In this document: positions 4,274-59,416 of the stretch, piece after piece
How the letters are laid out: each line of letters starts with the position of its first letter
Position numbering within the stretch: position 1 is the first letter of the stretch
Assembly (NCBI GenBank): GCA_016234735.1
Contig: JACRAN010000338.1
Span: 11,441-75,440 of the forward strand
DNA length: 64,000 nucleotides
Reading direction: 5' to 3'
From: Bacteroidota bacterium
Lineage (GTDB): Bacteria > Bacteroidota > Bacteroidia > Chitinophagales > Saprospiraceae
Made by a program: the position numbers and the translations under genes
Notes under the pieces: model-generated
Database searches by the model: none
Told to the model about the DNA's origin: nothing
What the model saw: only the letters and a program-made list of their open reading frames with translations

Positions 4274-4311
4274 TTCAGATTTTAGACCTAAGATATTAGA
4301 CTTTAGATGGG
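4274..4311 (-). promoter_or_regulatory. conserved pre-start leader element, family 1 (copy upstream of galE)
   Basis: The minus strand reads TCCCATCTAAAGTCTAATATCTTAGGTCTAAAATCTG, ending about 17 nt before the galE ATG. It is roughly 80 percent identical to 15941-15978 upstream of rsmE. Confidence 0.5.
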
Positions 4312-4462
4312 AATGGAGAACGGATGAAACGGATTTTGCGGATTGAAACGGATATTCTTTTTATTTGACCCAGGAAATTACATGGAATAAACTTTCGTGT
4401 AAAACAAAAAAAATCCGTTCACATCAGTTGTATCCGTTTCATCCGTTCTCCAATCCTATCTA
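4304..4462. repeat. ~155-bp palindromic (MITE-like) intergenic element, copy 1
   Basis: ~30-bp terminal inverted repeats: TAGATGGGAATGGAGAACGGATGAAACGGAT, and at the other end ATCCGTTTCATCCGTTCTCCAATCCTATCTA. The arms are tandem (G)AAACGGAT words. A second copy lies at 9652-9804. Confidence 0.75.
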
Positions 4463-4502
4463 ACTCACACTTTCAACTGACCCGCCACAAAAATAGCTGC
4501 AT

Positions 4503-6881: not shown

Positions 6882-8534
6882 TTGCTCGACGAACTCATCA
6901 GCCATAAAAGCCGCTGGTTGGACATCAACAAGCAACAACGGTTGGGGGTGCTCGCCATGGATGATTTCAATGTGGCCCGCAACCAGATTACGTTTGCGCT
7001 CATCGGGTTCATTTCGGCACTTCAGAAGAAAATCAGGAAGCGCACCCTGTCGCCGTTCCAGTACGGGGAGGTAGCGACCGATTCGCACAGTGTTCAGCCT
7101 TCGGCTTCCACAACGGTTACGCCGAAGGTTACGGAACTCGTGGACGAGGGCAACCGAAAATTCAACGAAAAAGACTTCCAGGGTGCGCTTGAGTTGTTCG
7201 AGGAAGCCATCAAGGCCGATGGCTCCGTTGCCTTGCTTTACTCCAACCGGGGCCTCACGTTGTACAACCTCGGCCATGTGGACAAGGCCATGCAGGATTT
7301 CGACCGGGCCATCAAGCTCGACCCTGCTTTTGCGATGGCCTACATGAACCGTGGATTAGTAAAATACGAACAGCTCAACAAGTTGCAGGAAGCCCTTCGG
7401 GATTACACGCATGCCATCAACCTCGAACCGCAGAACAGCCTGGCCTATTTCAACCGGGGCATGGCGTTCATCACGCTGAACGACTACGACCGGGCCATCG
7501 ACGACTTCAACACGGTGCTGAACATCGACCCTGCCAATGCCGAAGCCTACATCAACCGGGGGCTTTGCAAACTGAATTCGCAGCGCTACAATGAGTCGGT
7601 AGAAGATTTTTCCAAAGCCATCCGCCTGAAAGGCGAAACGGAACTCGGCTACCTGAACCGGGGCCTGGCCTACTACTACCTCAATGACTACCAGTCGGCG
7701 CTGGCCGACTACCAGCAGACGCTGAAAATGAACCCGTACTCCGGGGAGGCGTACCGGCTCATCGGACTGATTCATTCCATGTCGGGCGAGTACGGCGAGT
7801 CCATCCCGTTTTACGACCATGCCATCAAGCTGGGCAACGACGACCAGTGGAGCTACCTCAACCGTGCCTTGGCCAAAACGCAAATCGAACAGTATGCCGA
7901 AGCCGTGGCCGATTACCAAAAAACGATAGAACTCGACCCTTTCAACCTGGACGGATGGTCGAGCCGGGGGCTAAATTTTTACCACCTGGGCGAGTACACC
8001 GTAGCGGAGGAATGCCTGATAAAAGCGACGAAAATCAACGCCAACCACCGCCCGACGCACAGCAATCTTGGTGTGCTTTACTACCAAACCGGGAAGTACA
8101 ACGATGCCATCAAGCACTTCCTGACAGCCATGAAGATTTCAAACCCGGACGATGAAACGCTGCTCCAACTGACCGGCACCTGCTGGTACCACCTCGGCAT
8201 CATCGACCAGTCAGTGGCATATTTTAAAAAATCCATCGAAGCTGACCCCAACCGCTCGATGGCCTGGTACTGGTACGGCGTGGCCCTGGAGGAAACGGGC
8301 GATAAACAAACCGCCATGGAATGCTACACTCATTCCATCCAACTTGACCCGCAGGGCAGTTACCTTTCTTACAACAACCGGGGCGTGTTGAAATACAACG
8401 CCGGTGACAACAAGGGCGCTATCGCCGATTATCAGGCGACGCTGGCTATCGTACCTACTTTTGAAACGACCTTGAAAAATTTGAAATTGGCAAAAGATGC
8501 CGAAGGTGGCGGAATTTTCAATTGGCTGAAATAG
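6882..8534 (+). CDS. tetratricopeptide-repeat protein (N-terminal region interrupted by in-frame TAG at 6861-6863)
   Basis: At least 10 canonical 34-aa TPR units (e.g. AYMNRGLVKYEQLNKLQEALRDYTHAINLEPQN). The same reading frame is open from the ATG at 6768 apart from one TAG. Confidence 0.8.
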   Translation: MLDELISHKSRWLDINKQQRLGVLAMDDFNVARNQITFALIGFISALQKKIRKRTLSPFQYGEVATDSHSVQPSASTTVTPKVTELVDEGNRKFNEKDFQGALELFEEAIKADGSVALLYSNRGLTLYNLGHVDKAMQDFDRAIKLDPAFAMAYMNRGLVKYEQLNKLQEALRDYTHAINLEPQNSLAYFNRGMAFITLNDYDRAIDDFNTVLNIDPANAEAYINRGLCKLNSQRYNESVEDFSKAIRLKGETELGYLNRGLAYYYLNDYQSALADYQQTLKMNPYSGEAYRLIGLIHSMSGEYGESIPFYDHAIKLGNDDQWSYLNRALAKTQIEQYAEAVADYQKTIELDPFNLDGWSSRGLNFYHLGEYTVAEECLIKATKINANHRPTHSNLGVLYYQTGKYNDAIKHFLTAMKISNPDDETLLQLTGTCWYHLGIIDQSVAYFKKSIEADPNRSMAWYWYGVALEETGDKQTAMECYTHSIQLDPQGSYLSYNNRGVLKYNAGDNKGAIADYQATLAIVPTFETTLKNLKLAKDAEGGGIFNWLK

Positions 8535-9550: not shown

Positions 9551-9651
9551 CGCTCTTTTTCTTGTTTTAATGCCCGGCGAAGTTAAAGAAAAGCCGCCCC
9601 AAATTTTAAAAACCTTGCGTCGGTTGGCCTGTTGTTTTTACCTTCACTTTC

Positions 9652-9804
9652 AGATAGGATGGGAGAACGGATGAAACGGATGAAACAGATTTGAACGGAT
9701 TTTTTTAAAATAAACCCACAGTAAATTGACTGAGGAATTTGCTCAAAAAAAAATCCGTTTCAATCCGCAAAATCCGTTTCATCCGTTGTCCAATCCCGTC
9801 CTAT
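9652..9804. repeat. ~155-bp palindromic (MITE-like) intergenic element, copy 2
   Basis: AGATAGGATGGGAGAACGGATGAAACGGATGAAACAGAT at one end and ATCCGTTTCAATCCGCAAAATCCGTTTCATCCGTTGTCCAATCCC at the other. Same architecture and termini as 4304-4462. Confidence 0.75.
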
Positions 9805-10435
9805 GCTTTCGCTCATGGAAAAACCTGGTGCCAAAAAAACGCCCGGCGAGTACGACAATTTCACCTTCCATCCGTACAACGTGATGCTGATGTTGACGCT
9901 AATGGCCATCACGGCATTGTTCCTGGCGCTGTCCATTTCGTTTGTGTATTCGAGGGTGCAGAGCGGCATCGGGGCTATCAGCATCCCCCGGCTGTTCATG
10001 TTCAACACATCCCTGCTCTTGGCCAGCAGCGTGGCGATGGTGCGGGCCAAAAAAGCCTACTTGGACGACCAGACACAGACCTATCAAAACTGTCTGCAAG
10101 CTACCATCGGGCTGACGCTGTTGTTTTTGGTGCTGCAAATCGTGGCATGGAGGCAACTCTTCCAGCAGAACATTTTCCCGGAGACGGACAACTCGGCAGG
10201 ATACCTCTACGTGTTGTCCATGCTGCATTTTGCGCACGTGGTAGCGGGGCTGCCCTTCCTTTTCCGTTTCTTGTCCACTGCCAAAAAACACATGAAAGAA
10301 CCCGTGACGGTGCTGGTTTATTTCTCCGACCCGGAGAAGCGCCTGCGCCTGCACCTGCTGTCCATCTACTGGCACTTCCTCGACGGGCTTTGGGTTTTCC
10401 TGGTGCTTTTTCTGTTGGCCAACCAATTGATTTAA
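9803..10435 (+). CDS. cytochrome c oxidase subunit III family protein
   Basis: 210 aa with multiple TM helices. Conserved subunit-III-like C-terminus HFAHVVAGL ... YWHFLDGLWVFL. No other cox genes are adjacent. Confidence 0.75.
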   Translation: MLSLMEKPGAKKTPGEYDNFTFHPYNVMLMLTLMAITALFLALSISFVYSRVQSGIGAISIPRLFMFNTSLLLASSVAMVRAKKAYLDDQTQTYQNCLQATIGLTLLFLVLQIVAWRQLFQQNIFPETDNSAGYLYVLSMLHFAHVVAGLPFLFRFLSTAKKHMKEPVTVLVYFSDPEKRLRLHLLSIYWHFLDGLWVFLVLFLLANQLI

Positions 10436-10497
10436 TTGTTGATGGTTGATGGTTAATTGTTTGAAGCCTCAATCAACAATCAACCATCAACAATTAA
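10432..10497. terminator. long tandem-word hairpin between convergent genes
   Basis: 19-bp perfect stem: TTAATTGTTGATGGTTGAT (10432-10450) against ATCAACCATCAACAATTAA (10479-10497). The arms are 7-nt words (TTGATGG/TTAATTG). The upstream gene's stop codon lies inside the left arm. Confidence 0.65.
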
Positions 10498-47473: not shown

Positions 47474-47548
47474 AAAAAAAAACTCCTACATCAAGGGAGG
47501 CAAAAGGCTGATGTAGGAGCACTAAACATACTATGAGAAAACTACACA
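47474..47548 (-). ncRNA. candidate small RNA, paralog 1 (conserved 20-mer + terminator hairpin)
   Basis: Minus strand: a TACTTTG -7-like box, then AGTTTTCTCATAGTATGTTTAGTG. An 11-bp stem follows (CTCCTACATCA/TGATGTAGGAG) whose loop contains CCTCCC, and then 9 T. Confidence 0.45.
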
Positions 47549-47591
47549 GCGCAAAGTAGCGTAATTCTGAACCTACAAAAAAGCTGCTTTT

Positions 47592-47644
47592 AGGAAACGG
47601 TCGCTTTGGTAAGGAAACGGTCGGTATGGTTTAGTAAATGGTAA
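47592..47644 (-). promoter_or_regulatory. phased direct repeats (candidate LytTR operator) upstream of paralog 1
   Basis: AGGAAACGGTCG occurs perfectly twice (47592-47603 and 47612-47623), with a degenerate third copy AGTAAATGGTAA (47633-47644). Start-to-start spacing is 20 and 21 bp. Confidence 0.5.
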
Positions 47645-47934: not shown

Positions 47935-48004
47935 AAAAAAATTCCTACACCCCAGAAGGGAAACAAAGGTGTAGGAGAATTAAACATACTATGAGAAAAC
48001 TAGA
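47935..48004 (-). ncRNA. candidate small RNA, paralog 2
   Basis: Minus strand: an exact TATCTTTG (TAnnTTTG) box, then AGTTTTCTCATAGTATGTTTAAT. A 9-bp stem follows (TCCTACACC/GGTGTAGGA) whose loop contains TCCCTTC, and then 7 T. Confidence 0.45.
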
Positions 48005-48066
48005 ATCAAAGATAAGACCAACAGTTTTCGGATAAAAGCTATATTTACGCACTGGAAGTTTTTTTA

Positions 48067-48120
48067 AGAAAACGGTAGGGTTCTTTGAGGAAACGGTAGT
48101 TCTTTTTCGATAAACGGAAT
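48067..48120 (-). promoter_or_regulatory. phased direct repeats (candidate LytTR operator) upstream of paralog 2
   Basis: Three copies: AGAAAACGGTAG (48067-48078), AGGAAACGGTAG (48088-48099) and a degenerate GATAAACGGAAT (48109-48120). Start-to-start spacing is exactly 21 bp. Confidence 0.5.
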
Positions 48121-48230
48121 TAATAATCTTAATAATCCTATCCTAAGTCAAAGACAATTTTACTTTTGCAAGGCTGATTAAAGCACTAAATTACTTTTGG
48201 CAACTACACACACATTTTGACCGGCAGGGC

Positions 48231-48303
48231 AAAAAAAATTCCCGCACCCCAGGAGGGACTAAAGGTGCAGGAAGATTAAACAAACATACTATGAGAAAAC
48301 TGT
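48231..48303 (-). ncRNA. candidate small RNA, paralog 3 (also the terminator of the kinase operon)
   Basis: Minus strand: an exact TATATTTG box 4 nt before AGTTTTCTCATAGTATGTTTGTTTAAT. A 10-bp stem follows (TTCCTGCACC/GGTGCGGGAA on minus, with one G-U) whose loop contains CCCTCC, and then 8 T. It begins about 55 nt after the HK stop. Confidence 0.45.
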
Positions 48304-48366: not shown

Positions 48367-50280
48367 TCACTTTATCTGAATATCCATGATGGGTATCAAG
48401 ACTTCGACTTTCGTTCCAAGTGCCTTGCCGGTTATTTCATCTTCCAAGTCAATGATTTGCACCGCTGTCAATTCAAGATTCCTTGATTGCAACAAGATTT
48501 GAAGCCTGTCCTGGGTAATCCTTGTGCCCATCGACTTGTGATCCTTGAAACCCGGATTTTTTTCCTGAAGCTCCCTGGCTTTCTTGCGGCCAATCCCGTC
48601 ATCTTCGACAATGCACAGAATGGTATTTTCGTCGTGGAAGGTAAATTCTACTTTGATAAGGCCTTTTTTCTTTGAACGGATACCGTGTTCGATTGCATTC
48701 TCCACATAAGGTTGGATAATCATGGTTGGAACACCGTAGATGTCCTCCTCTATTTCCTCATCGATAATTATTTGATACTCAAGTTGGTCCTCAAACCGCA
48801 AATTCATGTTGATTTCGAGGTAATTCCGAAGGAATTCGATTTCTTTTTCCAATGAAATGACTTCCAATTCCGAATATTCCAGGCTTTGCCGCATGAGGTG
48901 GGCAAACTGTGCGAGATACTTAGCTGCCTGCGCAGTGTCGTTGGAAGTGATGCAATTTTGAACAGAGTTCAAGGCATTGAAAACAAAGTGCGGGTTCATC
49001 TGTGCCCGCAAAGCCTTGAGTTGGAGGCCCGCAGCCTGGAGTTTGAACATCTCGGCTTCTTTTTCCTTTCGTTCGGCCGTGAATTTTATTTCAAGTTCCC
49101 TTATTTCCGTATTTTTTTCTTCAAACAGAAAACGTTCAACCGCCTGATTGTACAAAATCTGGTAGTCGTAGGCATTTTTAAAGTCAAGTTCCTTGGCATA
49201 CAAATCGGCAATGTTCTTCAAAATCCCGGTGGCTTGGCGGTAATCTTGTCCCTTCTTGGCAAATTCCAGGGCTTTGAAGTAGTGTTTGAGCGCCTTTTTT
49301 GCTTTCTCTTCTTCAAATATCTTAGCCCGCCACCACTCGATGTTAGCGAGATTTTTATCCCTTTTCTCTTTAAACAACGGGTAGGCCGTTGAAAAAAGCT
49401 CCAAAGCTTCCTTGTACTGCCGTTTGTTCAGGTAACAATATCCCAGATTTGCGTAGGCAATTGCCCGTGCCTGCTGGTTTACATCATCCACTACTTTGAT
49501 GGCTTTTCTAAAATACAGGCCGGCGTTGTCAAAATCCTGTATCGTCATGTAGCCATTGCCCACATTGAGGTAATGCCAGGATAGACGGGACCGCATGCCA
49601 TTTTTTTCACAAAAATCGACTACGTTCAGGTAGGCCTGAATACTCCGCTGTGGTTCATTAAGCAATCCGTAAATGGTACCTAAACCACTTTGAATCAGGG
49701 TGAAAAAATGAAAATCTTTCAAGTCAGGTGTACCTGCCAAATTCTGTATTTCAACTTCACAATCAAGAAATGCCTTGAGTGCTTTGGGGTAGTTTGCAAA
49801 CTTCAGATGGAAAAAGCCTTCCCTGCATATCAATCGAACCCGGAGCCGGTCATCGGGGAATGATTCGAGGTATTTGGAAGCCTGATTCAGGTAAAATCGT
49901 GCCCTGTCGGTTTGGTCGAGATTCAGCAAAGTGCCAGCGTAGTCAATGTAGGTTTCGGCCAATTGGTTGACATCCCCCCGCTCACCGAGAATTTCGAGGG
50001 CTAAACGAAAATGGATTTCGGATAGGTTATAATTGTACAGTTGGTTTTCTACCAGTGCCGTGTTCAGGTGGTAATTGAGGCGGATGTCAGGATGGTCGTA
50101 CTCCGCAAAGATTTCAAGGATTTCGGCCAGGTATTTCTGGGCTTTGGTAATGTCTGAAAAAACTAATTGTGAGGAGAGTTTGTCCAGCGTAGTGAGCCTT
50201 TGAAGGCGTTCGTCAATGAGATGCAGGTTAGATTCCAATTTGATAAGATTCTCGTTGGTATCTGGATAGGTGTGTATCAT
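48367..50280 (-). CDS. TPR-repeat sensor histidine kinase, LytS/YehU-type, no TM segment
   Basis: 637 aa from the ATG at 50280. About 400 aa of TPR-like repeats (e.g. YANLGYCYLNKRQYKEALELF) precede a coiled coil. The His_kinase motif is MNPHFVFNALNSV, and the HATPase has QPYVENAIEHGI ... VEDDGIG. I see no hydrophobic TM stretch or signal peptide. Confidence 0.85.
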   Translation of the reverse strand: MIHTYPDTNENLIKLESNLHLIDERLQRLTTLDKLSSQLVFSDITKAQKYLAEILEIFAEYDHPDIRLNYHLNTALVENQLYNYNLSEIHFRLALEILGERGDVNQLAETYIDYAGTLLNLDQTDRARFYLNQASKYLESFPDDRLRVRLICREGFFHLKFANYPKALKAFLDCEVEIQNLAGTPDLKDFHFFTLIQSGLGTIYGLLNEPQRSIQAYLNVVDFCEKNGMRSRLSWHYLNVGNGYMTIQDFDNAGLYFRKAIKVVDDVNQQARAIAYANLGYCYLNKRQYKEALELFSTAYPLFKEKRDKNLANIEWWRAKIFEEEKAKKALKHYFKALEFAKKGQDYRQATGILKNIADLYAKELDFKNAYDYQILYNQAVERFLFEEKNTEIRELEIKFTAERKEKEAEMFKLQAAGLQLKALRAQMNPHFVFNALNSVQNCITSNDTAQAAKYLAQFAHLMRQSLEYSELEVISLEKEIEFLRNYLEINMNLRFEDQLEYQIIIDEEIEEDIYGVPTMIIQPYVENAIEHGIRSKKKGLIKVEFTFHDENTILCIVEDDGIGRKKARELQEKNPGFKDHKSMGTRITQDRLQILLQSRNLELTAVQIIDLEDEITGKALGTKVEVLIPIMDIQIK

Positions 50281-50417
50281 TAGGTGCAGTGTTTCAAATT
50301 TGAATGAGAAATCCAGAATGTTCGAATAAAAACACCTTGGCATTAAACATAAAAGAGGCAACACACACGTTGGTGCAGCCTCTTCCGAACAAACCTGACA
50401 AACTTACTTCCCGGAAA

Positions 50418-50594
50418 TTATTGTGGCAACTCACCTTGGCAGGGAGCCGGACTGAAAAGCCCGGAAAAAAAGCCTTTTTTCCTAATTTCGCTGGCATTTT
50501 CATTGCCTCCCAGGAATTCGCCCATCTCAAATTTTTTCAATTGATTTAGGTCGTCGAGTTCACCGAGGTTCTTTTTTTTGGTAGTCCTCCCCAT
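50418..50594 (-). CDS. small precursor peptide with double-glycine (GG) leader
   Basis: MGRTTKKKNLGELDDLNQLKKFEMGEFLGG then NENASEIRKKGFFSGLFSPAPCQGELPQ. The leader has hydrophobic residues at -4, -7, -12 and -15, E at -8, and GG at -2/-1. An alternative in-frame ATG at 50630 would add 12 aa. The gene sits between the RR and HK genes. Confidence 0.6.
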   Translation of the reverse strand: MGRTTKKKNLGELDDLNQLKKFEMGEFLGGNENASEIRKKGFFSGLFSPAPCQGELPQ

Positions 50595-50844
50595 AGCATC
50601 TAAGTTTTGAGTGAAAAATCTGAAGTTCATAGTGTTCTCGTTTATTCTGACGAGTTAAAAGTATGTGCGTTCTCCGGTTCCAAAGATAGGGACTTTTCAG
50701 AGTATCCAAAGTCTCCCGACAAAAATTGTCTGTGTAGCCAAAGCCGGGCTGGATGTAGTTCGCCTCTCAAAAAATCCTACTTGGTTGCGGGTTGCCTCCC
50801 ACCAACACTTTTACTCTATCGGTTAAAAAATGTGTAAGTTACAT

Positions 50845-51654
50845 TTAAAGTGCCTCTTCCAACCTCCTCATTTGCTCCATGAAAGCCGGACGCCTCCTGC
50901 GCGAAACTTCGATTTTTTTGCCATCGTCCATCACAAGGTAGCCTCCATCACCTTTGATAAACTTCCGAATATAATTCAAATTGATCACGTGACGCTTGTG
51001 GACCCTGTAAAAATTCAAGACTTGTAGCATGTCCTCGTAGGCTTTGATGGTCTTGGATGCGGTAATCCGGTCACCGTTCGTCAGAAAAATATGGGTGTAA
51101 TTATCCTCGGCTTCAAACCGGACAATGTCTTTGATACTCACAAAGTAGATCCCATCCACTGCCGAAATACTCATTTTTTCAAAGGAATTCGGGTTGCTGA
51201 GTGCCTTGTTGAACAACTCTAGCCGCTCCTCAATCTTCTCGGAACGGTGCGCACGAATCCGGCTCACTGCCTGAACCAACTCATCGGGGTTGATGGGTTT
51301 CATGATGTAGCCGATGGAACTGTACTGGCAGGCTCGGATGGCGAATTCATTAAACGCAGTAATGAAAATGACCTCGAAATCAATGGGTTTCAATTCGTCA
51401 AGCATCTGGAAAATCAGACCATCGGGCAGGTTGATGTCAAGGAAGGCGACATCCGGCTTGAAATCAGGCTCCTCAAATAGTTCTAGCGCTTCCTCAATGT
51501 TCAGGGCATCGGCTACGACCTGAACCTCCGGGCAGTGATTGGCCAGGAGGTTTTTGAGGTTGTTCATGCTTTTGATTTCGTCTTCGACGATTAGCGCTTT
51601 GATCACGGGTATCGATTTACTGAGTTCCAAGGGCTGTGTTGGCATTTTTATCAT
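50845..51654 (-). CDS. LytTR-family response regulator
   Basis: 269 aa. The receiver domain has ALIVEDE and FLDINLPDG. The C-terminal LytTR DNA-binding domain has IVRFEAEDNYTHIF and FYRVHKRHVINLNYI. Confidence 0.9.
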   Translation of the reverse strand: MIKMPTQPLELSKSIPVIKALIVEDEIKSMNNLKNLLANHCPEVQVVADALNIEEALELFEEPDFKPDVAFLDINLPDGLIFQMLDELKPIDFEVIFITAFNEFAIRACQYSSIGYIMKPINPDELVQAVSRIRAHRSEKIEERLELFNKALSNPNSFEKMSISAVDGIYFVSIKDIVRFEAEDNYTHIFLTNGDRITASKTIKAYEDMLQVLNFYRVHKRHVINLNYIRKFIKGDGGYLVMDDGKKIEVSRRRRPAFMEQMRRLEEAL

Positions 51655-56128: not shown

Positions 56129-56164
56129 CCTTAGTTTTGCTGTGAGAAAAACACGTGAACAAAA

Positions 56165-59100
56165 ATGATGAGGACTGCGCTGATAGCCCTGTTTTTACTG
56201 ACAATATCCCACCTGCTGCCCGGCCAGGACAAGGAACTGGCCCTGGCCAAACATTACGACGCTGTCGCCGACAGCCTCAGCAAAATCCCCGACCACACCA
56301 AAGCGATTCTTTTCCGCAAAAAAGCCCTCAATATTTACCAGAACCAGCGGCCCGTGCCGTTTGAAAAAATCGCCGCCGAGTTTCGGAGCATCGGCATCTA
56401 CTATCGCCGGGAAGGCAAATTTGCCGAGTGCGAATACTACCTGAGACGGGCTGTCGAGGTGGCCGAAGCCCGCCTCGGCCCATCGCACCCCGAACTGGCC
56501 AAAGCCTACAACAGCTACGGTATTTACCTCCTGACGAAAGGCGAAAACAAACAGGCACTCGCTTTTTTGAAAAAAAGCCTGGCCATCAATCAAAAACTGA
56601 AGTCGCCCGAAGTGGCCGACAACCTGAACAACATCGGCATCATCCACGAAAACCTCGGCGACTACGGGCAGGCGTTCGAGCATTACCGGCAGGCCCTGCG
56701 CTACAACCGGGCGAAAAACGGAACCTTCCACATCAACACCGCCAACAACTTCCTCAACCTCGGCACGTCGAGCCTGAAACTCGACCGCTACGACGAGGCA
56801 TTCGCTTTTTTTGATACCACGCTGCGGATTTACGACAGCATCCTGTCGCCCAATCACCCTGAATTTGCAGGGCTTTACAACAATCTGGGGGCCGTTTCCA
56901 ATGTACGGGGCGACTACCGCACGGCCATCGATTTTTTTGAAAAAGCGCTGCGCTGCACCGAGTTCAATCTCGGCGAAAACCACCCCGACGTGGCCAACGT
57001 GTACGCCAACACAGGCATCCTGCTGCTCAACCGGGGCGACCAGAACAAAGCACTGGCATTTTTCAGGAAGGCGTACAACATCCGGGTGAAGTTTTTCGGG
57101 CTGAACAACCACCTCGTGGCCCGCACCTGCAACTACCTCGGCGACTGCTACCTCCAGAAAAACGATTTCGACCAGGCGTACGACTGGTTCGGGGAGGCAC
57201 TGCGCATTTTTCAACGCCTGCCAGCCGGAGACCCTGCCGACCTGGCCGAATACAAAAACGACCTCGGTTATTATTTTGAAAAACTCGGCAACTACGGCGA
57301 GGCAGCCCGCCTGTACAACGAAGCGCTGAACGTGGTGCGCAAAAGCCCTGAAAAACAGGGCCTCGACATCGCCAACTCGCTCGCCCGGATTGGGAACGTC
57401 TATTTTTCGCAGGAAAACTTCGGGGAGGCCAACCGCCACTTCCAGCAGGCGCTCGCCATTTCCCGAAAATTACTGGGTTGGAGGCACCCCGACGTGGCCT
57501 CGATTTATTCGAAAATCGCCCTGGCCTGCGCCACCGACCGGGACTGTGCGCTCACCTATTGCGATTCGGCGATGGCCGCCGTGAATTTTACGAAGCGCGC
57601 CAATTTCGATTTTGAAAAAGTGACCTCGCCCATTGTTTTGCTGGATGTTTTTGAGAAAAAAGGCCAGTTGCTGCAACATTTTTTCAAAGAAACCGGCGAC
57701 AAAAAATGGCTCCAAGAGGCCGACCAGGTTTATACTTTCGGCACACAACTGATTGATTTTGTGAAAATTACGTTGGAGGAGCCGGGGTCGAGGCAGGCGC
57801 TGCTGGCCAACTATTTCCTCATTTACGAAAATGGAATCTCGGTAAAATGCCAGCTCAGGGAGGCCACCGGCGAGTCCCGTTTTTGGCACGAGGCTTTTGA
57901 AATTTCGGAACGGAGCAACGCCACGCTGCTGCTCGAAGCGCTGCAATCCGTGCAGGCCGGGCAGTTCGCAGGCATACCGGACAGCCTGCTCGAACAGGAG
58001 CGAAAGCTGAAAATCGACCTCGCTTTTTTTGAAAAACAAGTTTTCGAGGAACAACTCAACGGCCTGAACGCTGACCAAGGAAAACTCACCGGGCTGAACG
58101 ATAAAATTTTTACGCTGCAACAAAAAAGCACCCGCCTGACGGAGGCACTTCGCAGGGATTTTCCCAAGTATTTCGAGCTGAAATATGTGCCGGAAGTGGT
58201 CGGTGTCGATGAAATCCAGCGCAAACTGCTGCGCCCGGGGCAGGGTATGTTGGCCTACTTCGTGGGGGAGGAAAACATTTTCGCCTTCGTCATTTCGGAG
58301 AAAAAATTCGAGGTGGTGACGATTCCGAAGGAGTTTCCGCTTGAAGCCTGGGTCGAGGAGTTCCGCAACAGCATCTACCGCTACAACCCGGCGAGCAAGG
58401 ATGTCGAATACCTGAGCCAGAAATACGCCAACCTCGGCCACGAACTTTACGAGTTGATTTTCGAGCCGGTGCGAACGAAACTGACTGGTAATGAGCTGAT
58501 TATCGTTCCCGGCGGGGTGCTGGGCTACCTCCCGTTCGATGCGCTGCTGGCCACCGAACCCGACGAGTACGGCAGCTTCGACACGCACGATTACCTCGTA
58601 CGCAAGTACCAGTTCAGTTACAGCTATTCCGCCACGCTGCTCAAGGAAATGTCGGAGCGGCGGACGAAGTGGCGGAAGGGCGGCTTCGTGGCGTTCGCCC
58701 CCTCCTACTCCGGCGACTCCCTCAGCCTTCGCAGCAATGACCCCTGGCGGGCCATGCTCGGCAAACTGAAATTCAACAAAACAGAAGCCCTTGCTATCCA
58801 GGGAGTTATGGGTGGGAAGGTGTTCCTCGATTCCGCCGCTACGGAGCAGCGGTTTATGGAAATAGCGCCCAGAGCGGGCATCCTGCACCTGGCACTCCAT
58901 GCCAAATCGAACGATGAGCATGGCGAGTACTCCTACCTCGCTTTTTACCAGACGCTCGACTCCATCGAAAATGAGTTGATTTTCGTGAAAGACCTCTACT
59001 CCATGCGTATCCGGGCGGCGCTGGTGGTGCTGAGTGCCTGCGAGACGGGCATCGGCGAACTGCAACGGGGCGAGGGCATCGTCAGCCTGGCGAGGGGATT

Positions 59101-59416
59101 TTCTTACGCCGGTGCCGCCAGCATCGTCACCACGCTGTGGAGCATCGACGACTACGCCTCCTCCGAAATCATGACGGATTTTTACCAAAACCTGAAAGCC
59201 GGAGCCACGAAAGATGCCGCCCTCCGGCAGGCAAAACTGGCTTTTTTGAAAAAAAGGAAAGGCAACAATGCCGCCCACCCGCTGTACTGGGCTGCCTTCA
59301 TCCCGGTCGGCGACATGGAGCCGTTGGGCAACGGCGGCCTGCCCTGGTGGGGTTGGGCAGGGTTGGCGCTCGCCGGTTTCAGTGCTGGCTGGTATTTTTT
59401 TTCAAGGAAAAAATAG
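56165..59416 (+). CDS. TPR-repeat CHAT-domain protease-like protein, exported and C-terminally anchored
   Basis: 1083 aa. The N-terminal signal peptide (MMRTALIALFLLTISHLLPG) is followed by about 10 TPRs. The C-terminal CHAT domain has His (LHLALHAKS) and Cys (VVLSACETG). A terminal TM helix precedes RKK. Confidence 0.85.
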   Translation: MMRTALIALFLLTISHLLPGQDKELALAKHYDAVADSLSKIPDHTKAILFRKKALNIYQNQRPVPFEKIAAEFRSIGIYYRREGKFAECEYYLRRAVEVAEARLGPSHPELAKAYNSYGIYLLTKGENKQALAFLKKSLAINQKLKSPEVADNLNNIGIIHENLGDYGQAFEHYRQALRYNRAKNGTFHINTANNFLNLGTSSLKLDRYDEAFAFFDTTLRIYDSILSPNHPEFAGLYNNLGAVSNVRGDYRTAIDFFEKALRCTEFNLGENHPDVANVYANTGILLLNRGDQNKALAFFRKAYNIRVKFFGLNNHLVARTCNYLGDCYLQKNDFDQAYDWFGEALRIFQRLPAGDPADLAEYKNDLGYYFEKLGNYGEAARLYNEALNVVRKSPEKQGLDIANSLARIGNVYFSQENFGEANRHFQQALAISRKLLGWRHPDVASIYSKIALACATDRDCALTYCDSAMAAVNFTKRANFDFEKVTSPIVLLDVFEKKGQLLQHFFKETGDKKWLQEADQVYTFGTQLIDFVKITLEEPGSRQALLANYFLIYENGISVKCQLREATGESRFWHEAFEISERSNATLLLEALQSVQAGQFAGIPDSLLEQERKLKIDLAFFEKQVFEEQLNGLNADQGKLTGLNDKIFTLQQKSTRLTEALRRDFPKYFELKYVPEVVGVDEIQRKLLRPGQGMLAYFVGEENIFAFVISEKKFEVVTIPKEFPLEAWVEEFRNSIYRYNPASKDVEYLSQKYANLGHELYELIFEPVRTKLTGNELIIVPGGVLGYLPFDALLATEPDEYGSFDTHDYLVRKYQFSYSYSATLLKEMSERRTKWRKGGFVAFAPSYSGDSLSLRSNDPWRAMLGKLKFNKTEALAIQGVMGGKVFLDSAATEQRFMEIAPRAGILHLALHAKSNDEHGEYSYLAFYQTLDSIENELIFVKDLYSMRIRAALVVLSACETGIGELQRGEGIVSLARGFSYAGAASIVTTLWSIDDYASSEIMTDFYQNLKAGATKDAALRQAKLAFLKKRKGNNAAHPLYWAAFIPVGDMEPLGNGGLPWWGWAGLALAGFSAGWYFFSRKK

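Follow-up and report, generated by a model that had tools for sequence, protein, structure and literature searches.

Peptide-based cell-cell signalling with double-glycine (GG) leader pheromones, LytTR regulators and regulatory RNAs is textbook biology in Firmicutes. In the three-component cassettes of this group (ComC-ComD-ComE, BlpC-BlpH-BlpR, PlnA-PlnB-PlnC/D), a small gene for a GG-leader peptide lies next to genes for a histidine kinase and a LytTR response regulator. The kinase is a polytopic membrane receptor of the HPK10 type that binds the extracellular peptide, and direct repeats bound by the regulator upstream of the peptide gene provide autoinduction. CSP-ComDE and BIP-BlpHR are examples of peptide/receptor pairs encoded in one locus (PMC7595303). 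Leaders of this kind end in Gly-Gly, or rarely Gly-Ala or Gly-Ser, at the cleavage site (PMC7595303). They carry hydrophobic residues at -4, -7, -12 and -15 and an acidic residue at -8 on an amphipathic helix, and they are substrates of C39-peptidase ABC exporters (PCATs).

Other described systems share some of these elements. In staphylococcal agr (AgrD-AgrC-AgrA plus RNAIII), a LytTR regulator has paired direct repeats about 60 nt upstream of an adjacent regulatory RNA gene (agr P3/RNAIII), while Vibrio LuxO-Qrr has several paralogous sRNAs with one invariant seed. The RRNPP receptors (Rap, NprR, PlcR, PrgX, Rgg) are cytoplasmic TPR proteins encoded next to a small propeptide gene, and have been described in Firmicutes and their phages. 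In the Bacteroidota, TIGR04149 (GG_sam_targ_CFB) describes rSAM-modified RiPP precursors. No description of signalling with GG-leader pheromones, LytTR regulators and regulatory RNAs in the Bacteroidota was found in the searchable literature.

A locus that resembles each of these systems in part is found in a Saprospiraceae genome (GCA_016234735.1, contig JACRAN010000338.1). The window is the whole stretch of 64,000 nucleotides that was analysed. A sequence-only reading of it had pointed to a small ORF with a near-consensus GG leader between a response regulator gene and a histidine kinase gene. The features of the locus are as follows.

50418..50630 (-), small gene for a 70-aa precursor peptide (stop codon at 50418-50420)
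50595..50630 (-), codons 1-12, a conserved N-terminal extension (MxFxFFTQNLDA) ahead of the leader
50505..50594 (-), double-glycine-type leader, M13-G42, with a predicted helix at residues 22-39
50421..50504 (-), putative 28-aa core peptide N43-Q70, with a variable N-terminal half, a KKK patch, a Gly/Phe patch and a conserved C-terminal tail P-C-x-G-D/E-L-P-Q
50681..50710 (-), the peptide gene's own promoter, TTTG-N18-TAtcTTTG (Bacteroidota -33/-7 type), about 50 nt upstream of the ATG
50345..50385 (-), intrinsic-terminator-like hairpin plus U-run between the peptide gene and the kinase gene
50845..51654 (-), response regulator with receiver and LytTR DNA-binding domains
48367..50280 (-), soluble histidine kinase with an N-terminal TPR superhelix (about residues 24-400, from a structure model), a long coiled coil, and His_kinase (PF06580) and ATPase domains
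48231..48301 (-), predicted small RNA sA (invariant 5' seed, terminator hairpin, U-run), with no LytTR-type boxes upstream
47935..48001 (-), predicted small RNA sB
47474..47543 (-), predicted small RNA sC
48066..48124 (-), three direct repeats (consensus AAAC(C/T)(T/G)ACCGTT(C/T)CCT) at exact 21-bp phasing, at -116/-95/-74 from sB
47590..47627 (-), two direct repeats of the same box, 20 bp apart, at -77/-57 from sC
50581..50608 (-), predicted pairing site for the sRNA seed on the peptide mRNA, spanning the internal AUG (M13)

The observation made from the sequence alone is correct. The ORF translates as MNFRFFTQNLDAMGRTTKKKNLGELDDLNQLKKFEMGEFLGG|NENASEIRKKGFFSGLFSPAPCQGELPQ, and counting back from GG the residues are F(-4), M(-7), E(-8), L(-12) and L(-15). 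The full motif [LIVMF]xx[LIVMF]xxx[ED][LIVMF]xx[LIVMF]xGG occurs once in the six-frame translation of the window, against an average of 0.09 in shuffled sequence. The statement that no PCAT is present in the window also holds, since no ABC ATPase (Walker A plus signature motif) is encoded anywhere in it and none of its ten largest ORFs is a C39/ABC protein. Two details need correction. The GFFSGLF segment had been called amphipathic, but it is a Gly/Phe-rich hydrophobic patch rather than an amphipathic helix, and AlphaFold predicts coil there at low confidence. The first 12 residues, which had been placed in brackets in favour of a start at M13, are translated in this lineage.

The ORF is a real gene under codon-level purifying selection. 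Its pN/pS is 0.07-0.26 (pS of 0.4-0.8 against pN of 0.05-0.18), with 26-34 third-position changes against 2-9 second-position changes over all 70 codons. The reading frame, length and stop position are kept down to 31-45% protein identity. In the N-terminal extension, Leu10 uses five synonymous codons among 19 loci, while F6, N9 and M13 never change. M13 is the only start in one divergent lineage, that of locus L027, where the extension is lost through an in-frame stop; in the lineage of the window M1 is used as well or instead.

The gene keeps the same place, between the LytTR regulator and the TPR histidine kinase, in every related locus examined. These loci come from about 17 Saprospiraceae/Lewinellaceae assemblies. 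The order is kept in 12 GTDB species, in three divergent loci (L027, L028 and L029) at 51-69% kinase identity, and in two further loci (L030 and L022). Assemblies that carry the cassette include GCA_016124585.1, GCA_041741095.1, GCA_041392515.1, GCA_964442355.1 and the circular 6.19-Mb contig ctg322070 of ERZ25072999. A metagenome scan returned only three short loci. The absence of the ORF from relatives carrying the same regulator/kinase pair, and conservation at the nucleotide rather than the codon level, had been set beforehand as grounds for rejecting the gene, and neither was found. The peptide belongs to an unannotated family of 46 clusters. It diverges faster (45-56% identity) than the flanking regulator (80-93%).

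The gene has its own promoter and terminator-like hairpin. The promoter motif occurs 7 times in the window against 1.05 expected and is invariant in 14 orthologous loci, and a TAnnTTTG box is present in 9 of 11 divergent loci. A scan for sigma-70 promoters and simple terminators found nothing useful; the organism uses the Bacteroidota TAnnTTTG type. The hairpin appears in the centroid fold. Its stem AAGAGGC/GCCTCTT is invariant and its loop variable in 14 loci, and L027-L029 carry different hairpin sequences at the same place.

The leader pattern holds across 35 family members. G(-2) is present in 35/35, and position -1 is G in 32 and S, T or A in one each, as known GG leaders allow Gly-Ala and Gly-Ser (PMC7595303). 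Positions -3, -4, -7 and -12 are hydrophobic in 35/35 and -15 in 33/35, and -8 is E/D in 30/35. AlphaFold places a helix just before GG (residues 22-39) at low confidence, and there is no Sec-type hydrophobic segment. The window peptide itself gives no hit in Pfam or NCBIfam, and matches no curated GG-leader model at E<=10. Among 31 members, 17 hit TIGR04149 at 10.9-21.3 bits, always in the correct register, with profile positions 2-29/31 ending at GG, whereas ten reversed controls gave no hit. All of these scores are below the 25-bit cutoff. One member hits TIGR01847 at 12.8 bits, below the cutoff of 15.7. In the putative core, Cys lies at a fixed -7 from the C-terminus in 30/35 members, with P(-2) in 29/35 and Q(-1) in 30/35. 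No PCAT or other C39/ABC transporter lies in the window or in the 10-kb flanks of any of the 30 loci examined.

The neighbouring regulator matches PF00072 (2.7e-15) and PF04397 (2.1e-19) and is 86-91% identical in relatives. The real start of the kinase is the ATG at 50280, giving 637 aa. The kinase has no membrane segment, since no 19-residue window exceeds a Kyte-Doolittle value of 1.0. Its AlphaFold model (pLDDT 81) shows a TPR superhelix with 18 TPR-like helices, a coiled coil and the kinase. The top Foldseek hits are peptide-binding TPRs (LGN/Pins), and the RRNPP receptors NprR and Rap appear at ranks 29-45. Sequence hits in the PDB are generic TPR proteins. Divergence of the TPR domain was compared with that of the kinase core as a hint of co-evolution with the peptide, but there was no contrast.

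Just downstream of the kinase lie three paralogous, terminator-bearing predicted small RNAs that have not been described before. Two of them, sB and sC, are preceded by direct repeats of the LytTR-box type. LytTR regulators bind paired direct repeats, the proximal one near -60 (PMC4227749), and SilA uses a 10-bp repeat plus an 11-bp spacer (PMC2766830). The repeats found here fit an architecture of two or more imperfect 9-10-bp direct repeats with an 11-12-bp spacer. Their phase is 21 bp (sB) and 20 bp (sC), and the proximal boxes lie at -74 and -57 from the conserved RNA 5' block. They sit at the same positions in 10 of 13 loci for sB and are conserved in 10 of 12 loci for sC. No phased CCGTT boxes occur upstream of the peptide, regulator or kinase genes, and a search for LytTR-type direct repeats upstream of the peptide gene found only weak, non-conserved ones. 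Rfam gave only two tRNA-Leu genes and a chance-level Pseudomon-1 hit at the third sRNA.

The invariant 5' seed of the sRNAs is predicted to pair best with the peptide mRNA at its internal AUG. For the sA seed this is the best non-self duplex in the whole window (-21.1 kcal/mol, z -4.8), and the same site is the best site in 8 of 8 species. Pairing with the start of a TPR-CHAT gene is strong in the window but not consistently conserved, and is only a lead.

The interpretation that came with the sequence-only reading, a bacteriocin- or pheromone-like peptide with a leader of the kind recognised by C39 exporters, is partly supported. The explanation that we tentatively favour is an agr-like circuit in which the small gene encodes the precursor of a signalling peptide. 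The precursor would belong to a conserved four-part cassette in Saprospiraceae/Lewinellaceae, made up of the LytTR regulator, the peptide, the soluble TPR kinase and the three sRNAs. In this view, the peptide gene is transcribed from its own promoter and mostly terminated at its own hairpin. An unlinked C39 peptidase or exporter would recognise the leader, which is of the Bacteroidota TIGR04149 type, and cut after GG. The conserved tail C-x-G-x-L-P-Q would then be bound by the TPR domain of the adjacent kinase. Because the kinase is cytoplasmic, this would happen after re-uptake or on unexported precursor. The kinase would set the phosphorylation state of the regulator, which would bind the phased boxes and drive sRNA-B and sRNA-C. 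Finally, the sRNA seed would pair with translation-start regions, including the internal AUG of the peptide mRNA, and close a feedback loop.

The analysis shows the gene, its conservation, its gene order and the sequence features around it. The functions of the promoter and hairpin are inferred, recognition, cleavage and export of the peptide are inferred by analogy, and binding by the kinase is likewise inferred. Binding and activation by the regulator are inferred from site architecture, and the transcription of the sRNAs and their pairing are predictions. That the gene is real is practically certain, and its functional coupling to the two-component system is very likely. A relationship of the leader to GG leaders is likely. 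Cleavage or export at GG, and the peptide being the ligand of the kinase, are each about as likely as not. Control of the sRNAs by the regulator is somewhat more likely than not, while targeting of the peptide mRNA by the sRNAs remains tentative.

Several findings weigh against this model, and alternatives can be considered. The kinase is not a receptor of the ComD/PlnB type, so the classic extracellular route of pheromone sensing cannot apply as such. An exported peptide would have to recross two membranes, for which no precedent in the Bacteroidota is known to us. The tail is the most conserved part of the core across genera, unlike typical pherotype-diversifying pheromones. Without boxes upstream of the peptide gene, the classic autoinduction loop is missing. 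The 12-residue extension has no counterpart in known GG leaders. The window peptide hits no curated GG-leader model, every family hit is below the curated cutoff, and no C39/ABC transporter lies in the window or in the 10-kb flanks of any locus. One alternative is a purely intracellular small regulatory protein. The 49-75-aa product would never be exported or cut, and its amphipathic helix and/or tail would dock onto the TPR domain as an anti-kinase or connector, comparable in logic to Sda/KipI or to Phr-free Rap partners. The GG would be only a flexible hinge, and the likeness to GG leaders ancestral or convergent. A conserved tail with a free carboxylate is the kind of ligand that TPR domains bind, as with Hsp70/90 EEVD and PTS1. 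The cytoplasmic kinase with its peptide-binding-type TPR superhelix, the lack of nearby transporters in any locus, the N-terminal extension unlike known leaders and the unreached model cutoffs also suit this view. However, the leader motif is conserved position by position as in C39 substrates, the residue at -1 varies only among G/S/T/A, and the TIGR04149 hits recur in register with clean reversed controls. In the L027 lineage the protein reduces to a canonical 31-aa leader plus an 18-aa core, which fits a processed peptide better than a folded partner. Divergence is also fast relative to the neighbouring genes. This alternative is doubtful, though it is the strongest rival.

A bacteriocin or RiPP toxin precursor, produced under control of the two-component system without itself being the signal, is unlikely. 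The TIGR04149-type leader suggests it, and in Gram-positive bacteria bacteriocin genes commonly sit next to LytTR two-component systems (PMC7595303). However, no radical-SAM or other maturase, immunity gene or transporter appears in the Pfam lists of the 10-kb flanks of any locus. The core has a single Cys and a net charge of about +1. The gene is a single-copy, syntenic core-genome feature among housekeeping genes (PBP1C, PFK) across genera rather than part of a variable island, and it lacks upstream LytTR-type boxes. Conservation at the RNA level alone, with the spacer as a cis-regulatory leader or attenuator for the kinase gene or merely an sRNA target site and the ORF incidental, is very unlikely. 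A terminator does lie between the ORF and the kinase gene, and the stretch around M13 is nearly invariant at the DNA level and complementary to the sRNA seed. Even so, the codon-level substitution pattern already largely refutes this reading, and no Rfam family matches. A more far-reaching reading is not excluded but is also unlikely: an agr-like quorum-sensing circuit of hybrid design, in which the peptide is processed and exported by a PCAT and then sensed inside the cell by what is in effect an RRNPP-type receptor fused to a kinase. Its output would be a trio of Qrr/RNAIII-like sRNAs, driven by the LytTR regulator, that feed back on the peptide mRNA.

Saprospiraceae are abundant in activated sludge and aquatic systems. 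A conserved core-genome cassette of peptide, kinase, regulator and sRNAs in this family would give a concrete, testable candidate for peptide signalling in the phylum. It would also define a new sensor type, a soluble TPR histidine kinase with a genetically linked peptide, and add a new sRNA family with an invariant seed and predicted LytTR control. In addition, it would show that GG-leader peptides can be wired to cytoplasmic sensing. Even if the peptide turns out to act only inside the cell, the cassette is an uncharacterised and widely conserved regulatory module.

Compared with the TIGR04149 precursors, the leader region is similar in sequence and the phylum is the same, but the scores stay below the curated cutoff, no radical-SAM/SPASM maturase or exporter lies nearby, and the core is not Cys-rich. 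Compared with the ComCDE, BlpRHC and PlnABCD cassettes, the arrangement of peptide gene, kinase and LytTR regulator is shared, the exporter may likewise be encoded elsewhere, and the peptide evolves faster than the regulator. The locus differs in its soluble TPR-His_kinase protein, in having no obvious autoinduction, in the N-terminal extension and in its diderm host.

As in the RRNPP systems, a cytoplasmic TPR protein is encoded next to a small peptide gene, and the signalling part of the propeptide would be its C-terminal end. However, the output domain is a histidine kinase rather than an HTH or phosphatase domain, the propeptide carries a GG leader rather than a Sec signal or a PptAB substrate, and LGN/Pins match better than RRNPP proteins do. 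Compared with agr and LuxO-Qrr, there is no AgrB-type processing and no demonstrated thiolactone, and the predicted sRNAs, of about 70 nt, are unrelated in sequence to RNAIII or Qrr. On the other hand, paired direct repeats of the LytTR type precede adjacent predicted RNA genes as in agr, and several paralogous sRNAs with one invariant seed and predicted feedback onto the signalling genes recall Qrr.

The small ORF and its neighbours all lie on the minus strand:
50845-51654 (-), a response regulator with receiver and LytTR domains, upstream of the ORF
50681-50710 (-), a predicted promoter of the Bacteroidota type, TTTG-N18-TAtcTTTG
50418-50630 (-), the small ORF encoding the peptide
50345-50385 (-), a terminator-like hairpin followed by a U-run
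kinase start at the ATG at 50280 (-), a TPR+His_kinase (PF06580) protein of 637 aa (MIHTYPD...), downstream of the ORF

The observation made in the sequence-only reading is correct. The ORF translates exactly as given there, with F(-4), M(-7), E(-8), L(-12) and L(-15) counted back from GG. The start of the kinase was placed using orthologue gene calls and alignment. A regular expression for the full leader motif matches once in the six-frame translation of the window, while shuffled sequences give 0.09 matches on average. The same reading had found no C39 transporter in the window. This holds, since the window encodes no ABC ATPase at all and none of its ten largest ORFs is a C39/ABC protein.

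Evidence that the ORF is a real gene is provided by its relatives. Nine close homologues of 69-70 aa exist. Codon-aligned orthologues give a pN/pS of 0.07-0.26, and changes at third codon positions number 26-34, against 2-9 at second positions. The alternative that the conserved signal is at nucleotide rather than codon level, which had been named beforehand as a possible refutation, is therefore rejected. No Rfam family overlaps the gene.

The 12 N-terminal codons, which the sequence-only reading had set in brackets, are translated. Leu10 uses five synonymous codons among 19 loci, while F6, N9 and M13 never change. In one distant lineage (locus L027, on a circular 6.19-Mb contig of ERZ25072999) an in-frame TAA removes this extension, so that M13 is the only start. 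A remnant of the extension, MSQNLKL, sits out of frame upstream (L027 9700-9770), and the result is a 49-aa peptide with a canonical 31-aa leader. The unit from M13 to the stop is thus the ancestral core.

The promoter motif occurs 7 times in the window against 1.05 expected, and its -7 box is present in 9 of 11 divergent loci. The stem of the terminator-like hairpin is invariant among close relatives, and different hairpins replace it in distant ones. In locus L019, a ~168-nt insertion (about 10300-10470) lies between this terminator and the kinase start. The insertion is absent from the sister genome L020 and from all other loci, and may be a small mobile element. A conserved GAAACAC-N6-GAAACAC direct repeat lies immediately upstream of the kinase start codon in most relatives, of which the window keeps one copy (50281-50300, -). 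Because GA(A/G)ACACT ATG also precedes the peptide start, this may be the local translation-initiation context.

A genome scan found the gene in 12 species-level Saprospiraceae MAGs, and all relatives are MAGs or metagenome contigs. The 12 MAGs share the order SDR, MptE-like, regulator, peptide, kinase, with PBP1C convergent downstream. Searches were then started from divergent kinase orthologues at 69, 59 and 51% identity, the last being that of L027. In every case a family member lay between regulator and kinase. The same arrangement can be found in a Lewinellaceae MAG and on a metagenome contig with a 40%-identical peptide. Profile searches give 19 representatives at 50% clustering and 46 clusters at 90%. 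All are annotated as hypothetical and none has a Pfam domain. The peptide diverges much faster than its neighbours: where the regulator is 80-93% identical, the peptide is 45-56% identical.

The leader was examined across 35 unique members of the family. G(-2) is invariant, and position -1 is G in 32 members and S, T or A in one each. Positions -3, -4, -7 and -12 are always hydrophobic, position -15 is hydrophobic in 33 of 35, and position -8 is E/D in 30 of 35. This is the pattern described for C39 substrates, which end in Gly-Gly or, rarely, Gly-Ala or Gly-Ser (PMC7595303). The window peptide itself hits no curated model. However, 17 of 31 relatives hit TIGR04149, the Bacteroidota GG-leader RiPP model, and profile positions 2-29/31 always align from the residue equivalent to M13 to the GG. 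Scores are 10.9-21.3 bits against a cutoff of 25, and ten reversed sequences gave no hit. The interpretation as a double-glycine leader of the kind recognised by C39 exporters is therefore supported only in part: the leader is related to Bacteroidota GG leaders, but formal membership at the curated threshold is not reached. The protein has no Sec-type hydrophobic segment. AlphaFold predicts only a helix at residues 22-39, immediately before GG, at low confidence.

Beyond GG the sequence is variable. It is followed by a Lys patch and a strongly conserved C-terminal tail (50421-50444, -), C-x-G-x-h-P-Q, with Cys at a fixed -7 from the C-terminus in 30 of 35 members, Pro(-2) in 29 of 35 and Gln(-1) in 30 of 35. 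The constant spacing of the Cys recalls ring-forming pheromones such as AIP thiolactones, although this rests on sequence alone. No AgrB-like gene was seen in the flanks examined, where it was not specifically sought.

The sensor is predicted to be cytoplasmic. The kinase has no segment with a Kyte-Doolittle average above 1.0 over 19 residues. Its model (pLDDT 81) shows 18 helices forming a TPR superhelix (about residues 24-400), then a long helix leading into the kinase core. At least 607 homologues have the same length and architecture. Foldseek places peptide-binding TPR domains (LGN/Pins complexes) first, and the RRNPP pheromone receptors NprR and Rap follow at ranks 29-45 (E about 5e-8 to 4e-7). 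This is compatible with peptide binding but is not specific to it. The classic route, in which an extracellular pheromone binds a membrane kinase, therefore cannot apply as such. The inferred encounter of peptide and kinase must take place inside the cell, either after re-uptake as in RRNPP systems or before export.

An unexpected candidate output was found in the ~900-nt gene-free stretch between the kinase and PBP1C. This stretch is conserved at the DNA level in all relatives, and one 69-nt piece is 96% identical in L027, where the kinase protein is only 51% identical. It holds three paralogous units of ~70 nt that resemble small RNA genes, and two sets of direct repeats:
48301-48231 (-), first sRNA-like unit
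48066-48124 (-), three direct repeats upstream of the second unit
48001-47935 (-), second sRNA-like unit
47590-47627 (-), two direct repeats upstream of the third unit
47543-47474 (-), third sRNA-like unit

Each unit has an invariant 19-nt 5' block, AGTTTTCTCATAGTATGTT, which occurs 3 times in the window against 0 expected. Among the 18 loci where the block is found, it occurs two or three times in 17 and once in L008, whose contig ends within this stretch. Every copy lies downstream of the kinase gene. Each unit also has an 11-bp terminator hairpin, with compensatory changes at 4 pairs, and a U-run. A TAnnTTTG box lies 4-8 nt upstream of each. No Rfam family matches.

Upstream of the second unit lie three copies of AAAC(C/T)(T/G)ACCGTT(C/T)CCT at exactly 21-bp phasing (-116/-95/-74). 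Upstream of the third unit lie two copies 20 bp apart (-77/-57). These positions are conserved in 10 of 13 and 10 of 12 loci, respectively. The first unit and the regulator, peptide and kinase genes have none. Paired direct repeats with a period of about 21 bp, with the proximal one near -60, are the known binding architecture of LytTR regulators (AgrA, PMC4227749; SilA, PMC2766830). The adjacent LytTR regulator is therefore the obvious candidate activator of these RNAs, as an inference from site architecture alone.

The pattern CCGTT-N14-17-CCGTT occurs 9 times in the window against 1.27 expected. Five of those matches belong to other sequences, and four of the five lie in a palindromic element of ~150 bp built from short AACGGAT/ATCCGTT repeats. 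The window carries two copies of this element, at about 4303-4463 and 9649-9800, which are 91% complementary between sites. They flank a 5.2-kb segment that includes a gene (6882-8534, +) for a 550-aa protein with an N-terminal Effector-associated domain 11 (EAD11) followed by many TPR repeats. This domain type is associated with conflict and defence systems. An EAD11 protein also lies near the cassette in L027.

Both strands of the window were scanned with the 5' regions of the predicted sRNAs using RNAduplex. With the seed of the first sRNA, the best hit other than the RNA genes' own antisense strands is the peptide mRNA across its internal AUG, M13 (50608-50582, within the complementary stretch 50581-50608, -; -21.1 kcal/mol, z = -4.8). 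With the invariant 16-mer, the top three non-self hits all lie at translation starts on the sense strand. The top hit is the 5' UTR of the syntenic TPR-CHAT gene (56137-56160, +), and the others are the peptide M13 site and the start of the OmpA-like gene at about 40823 (-). The TPR-CHAT gene is a ~1,080-aa ORF (56165-59416, +) a few kb from the cassette. It is named after its counterparts in the related loci L003, L005, L008 and L028-L030, which are TPR + CHAT (caspase-like protease) proteins of ~1,070-1,110 aa.

The M13 site is the best site on the peptide mRNA in all eight species tested, although the target sequences differ. In L027 it covers the only start codon. Pairing with the CHAT gene start is less consistently conserved. 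This suggests, without proving, that the sRNAs repress translation of the peptide, at least of its M13-initiated form. It may also explain the near-invariance of the DNA around M13.

The most economical reading, which remains tentative, is a signalling cassette. The analysis itself establishes the coding gene, its conserved place between regulator and kinase, the leader pattern, the lack of a hydrophobic segment in the kinase and the conserved sequence features of the three downstream units. Export and cleavage of the peptide, its binding to the kinase, binding of the regulator to the repeats, expression of the sRNAs and their pairing with mRNA are inferred. The main rival, less likely but still possible, is a small partner protein of the kinase that is never exported. 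A bacteriocin role is unlikely, as it fits poorly with the absence of maturase, immunity and transporter genes within 10 kb on either side of the loci and with the core-genome synteny. An explanation at the RNA level alone is essentially excluded.

Literature searches found no description of such a system in the Bacteroidota. In the preferred reading, its parts correspond to those of agr and Com systems: a peptide with a GG leader, a kinase, a LytTR regulator and regulatory RNA output. It would have a new kind of sensor, a soluble TPR kinase that resembles RRNPP logic, and it lacks autoinduction boxes on the peptide gene. ComCDE-type cassettes require a membrane HPK10 kinase, and the locus fails this defining test. 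It also fails the test for RRNPP receptors, which have HTH or phosphatase output, and the test for TIGR04149 RiPP systems, which have a maturase and a Cys-rich core. The cassette is therefore classified as a variant distinct from these three families and not as a member of any of them.
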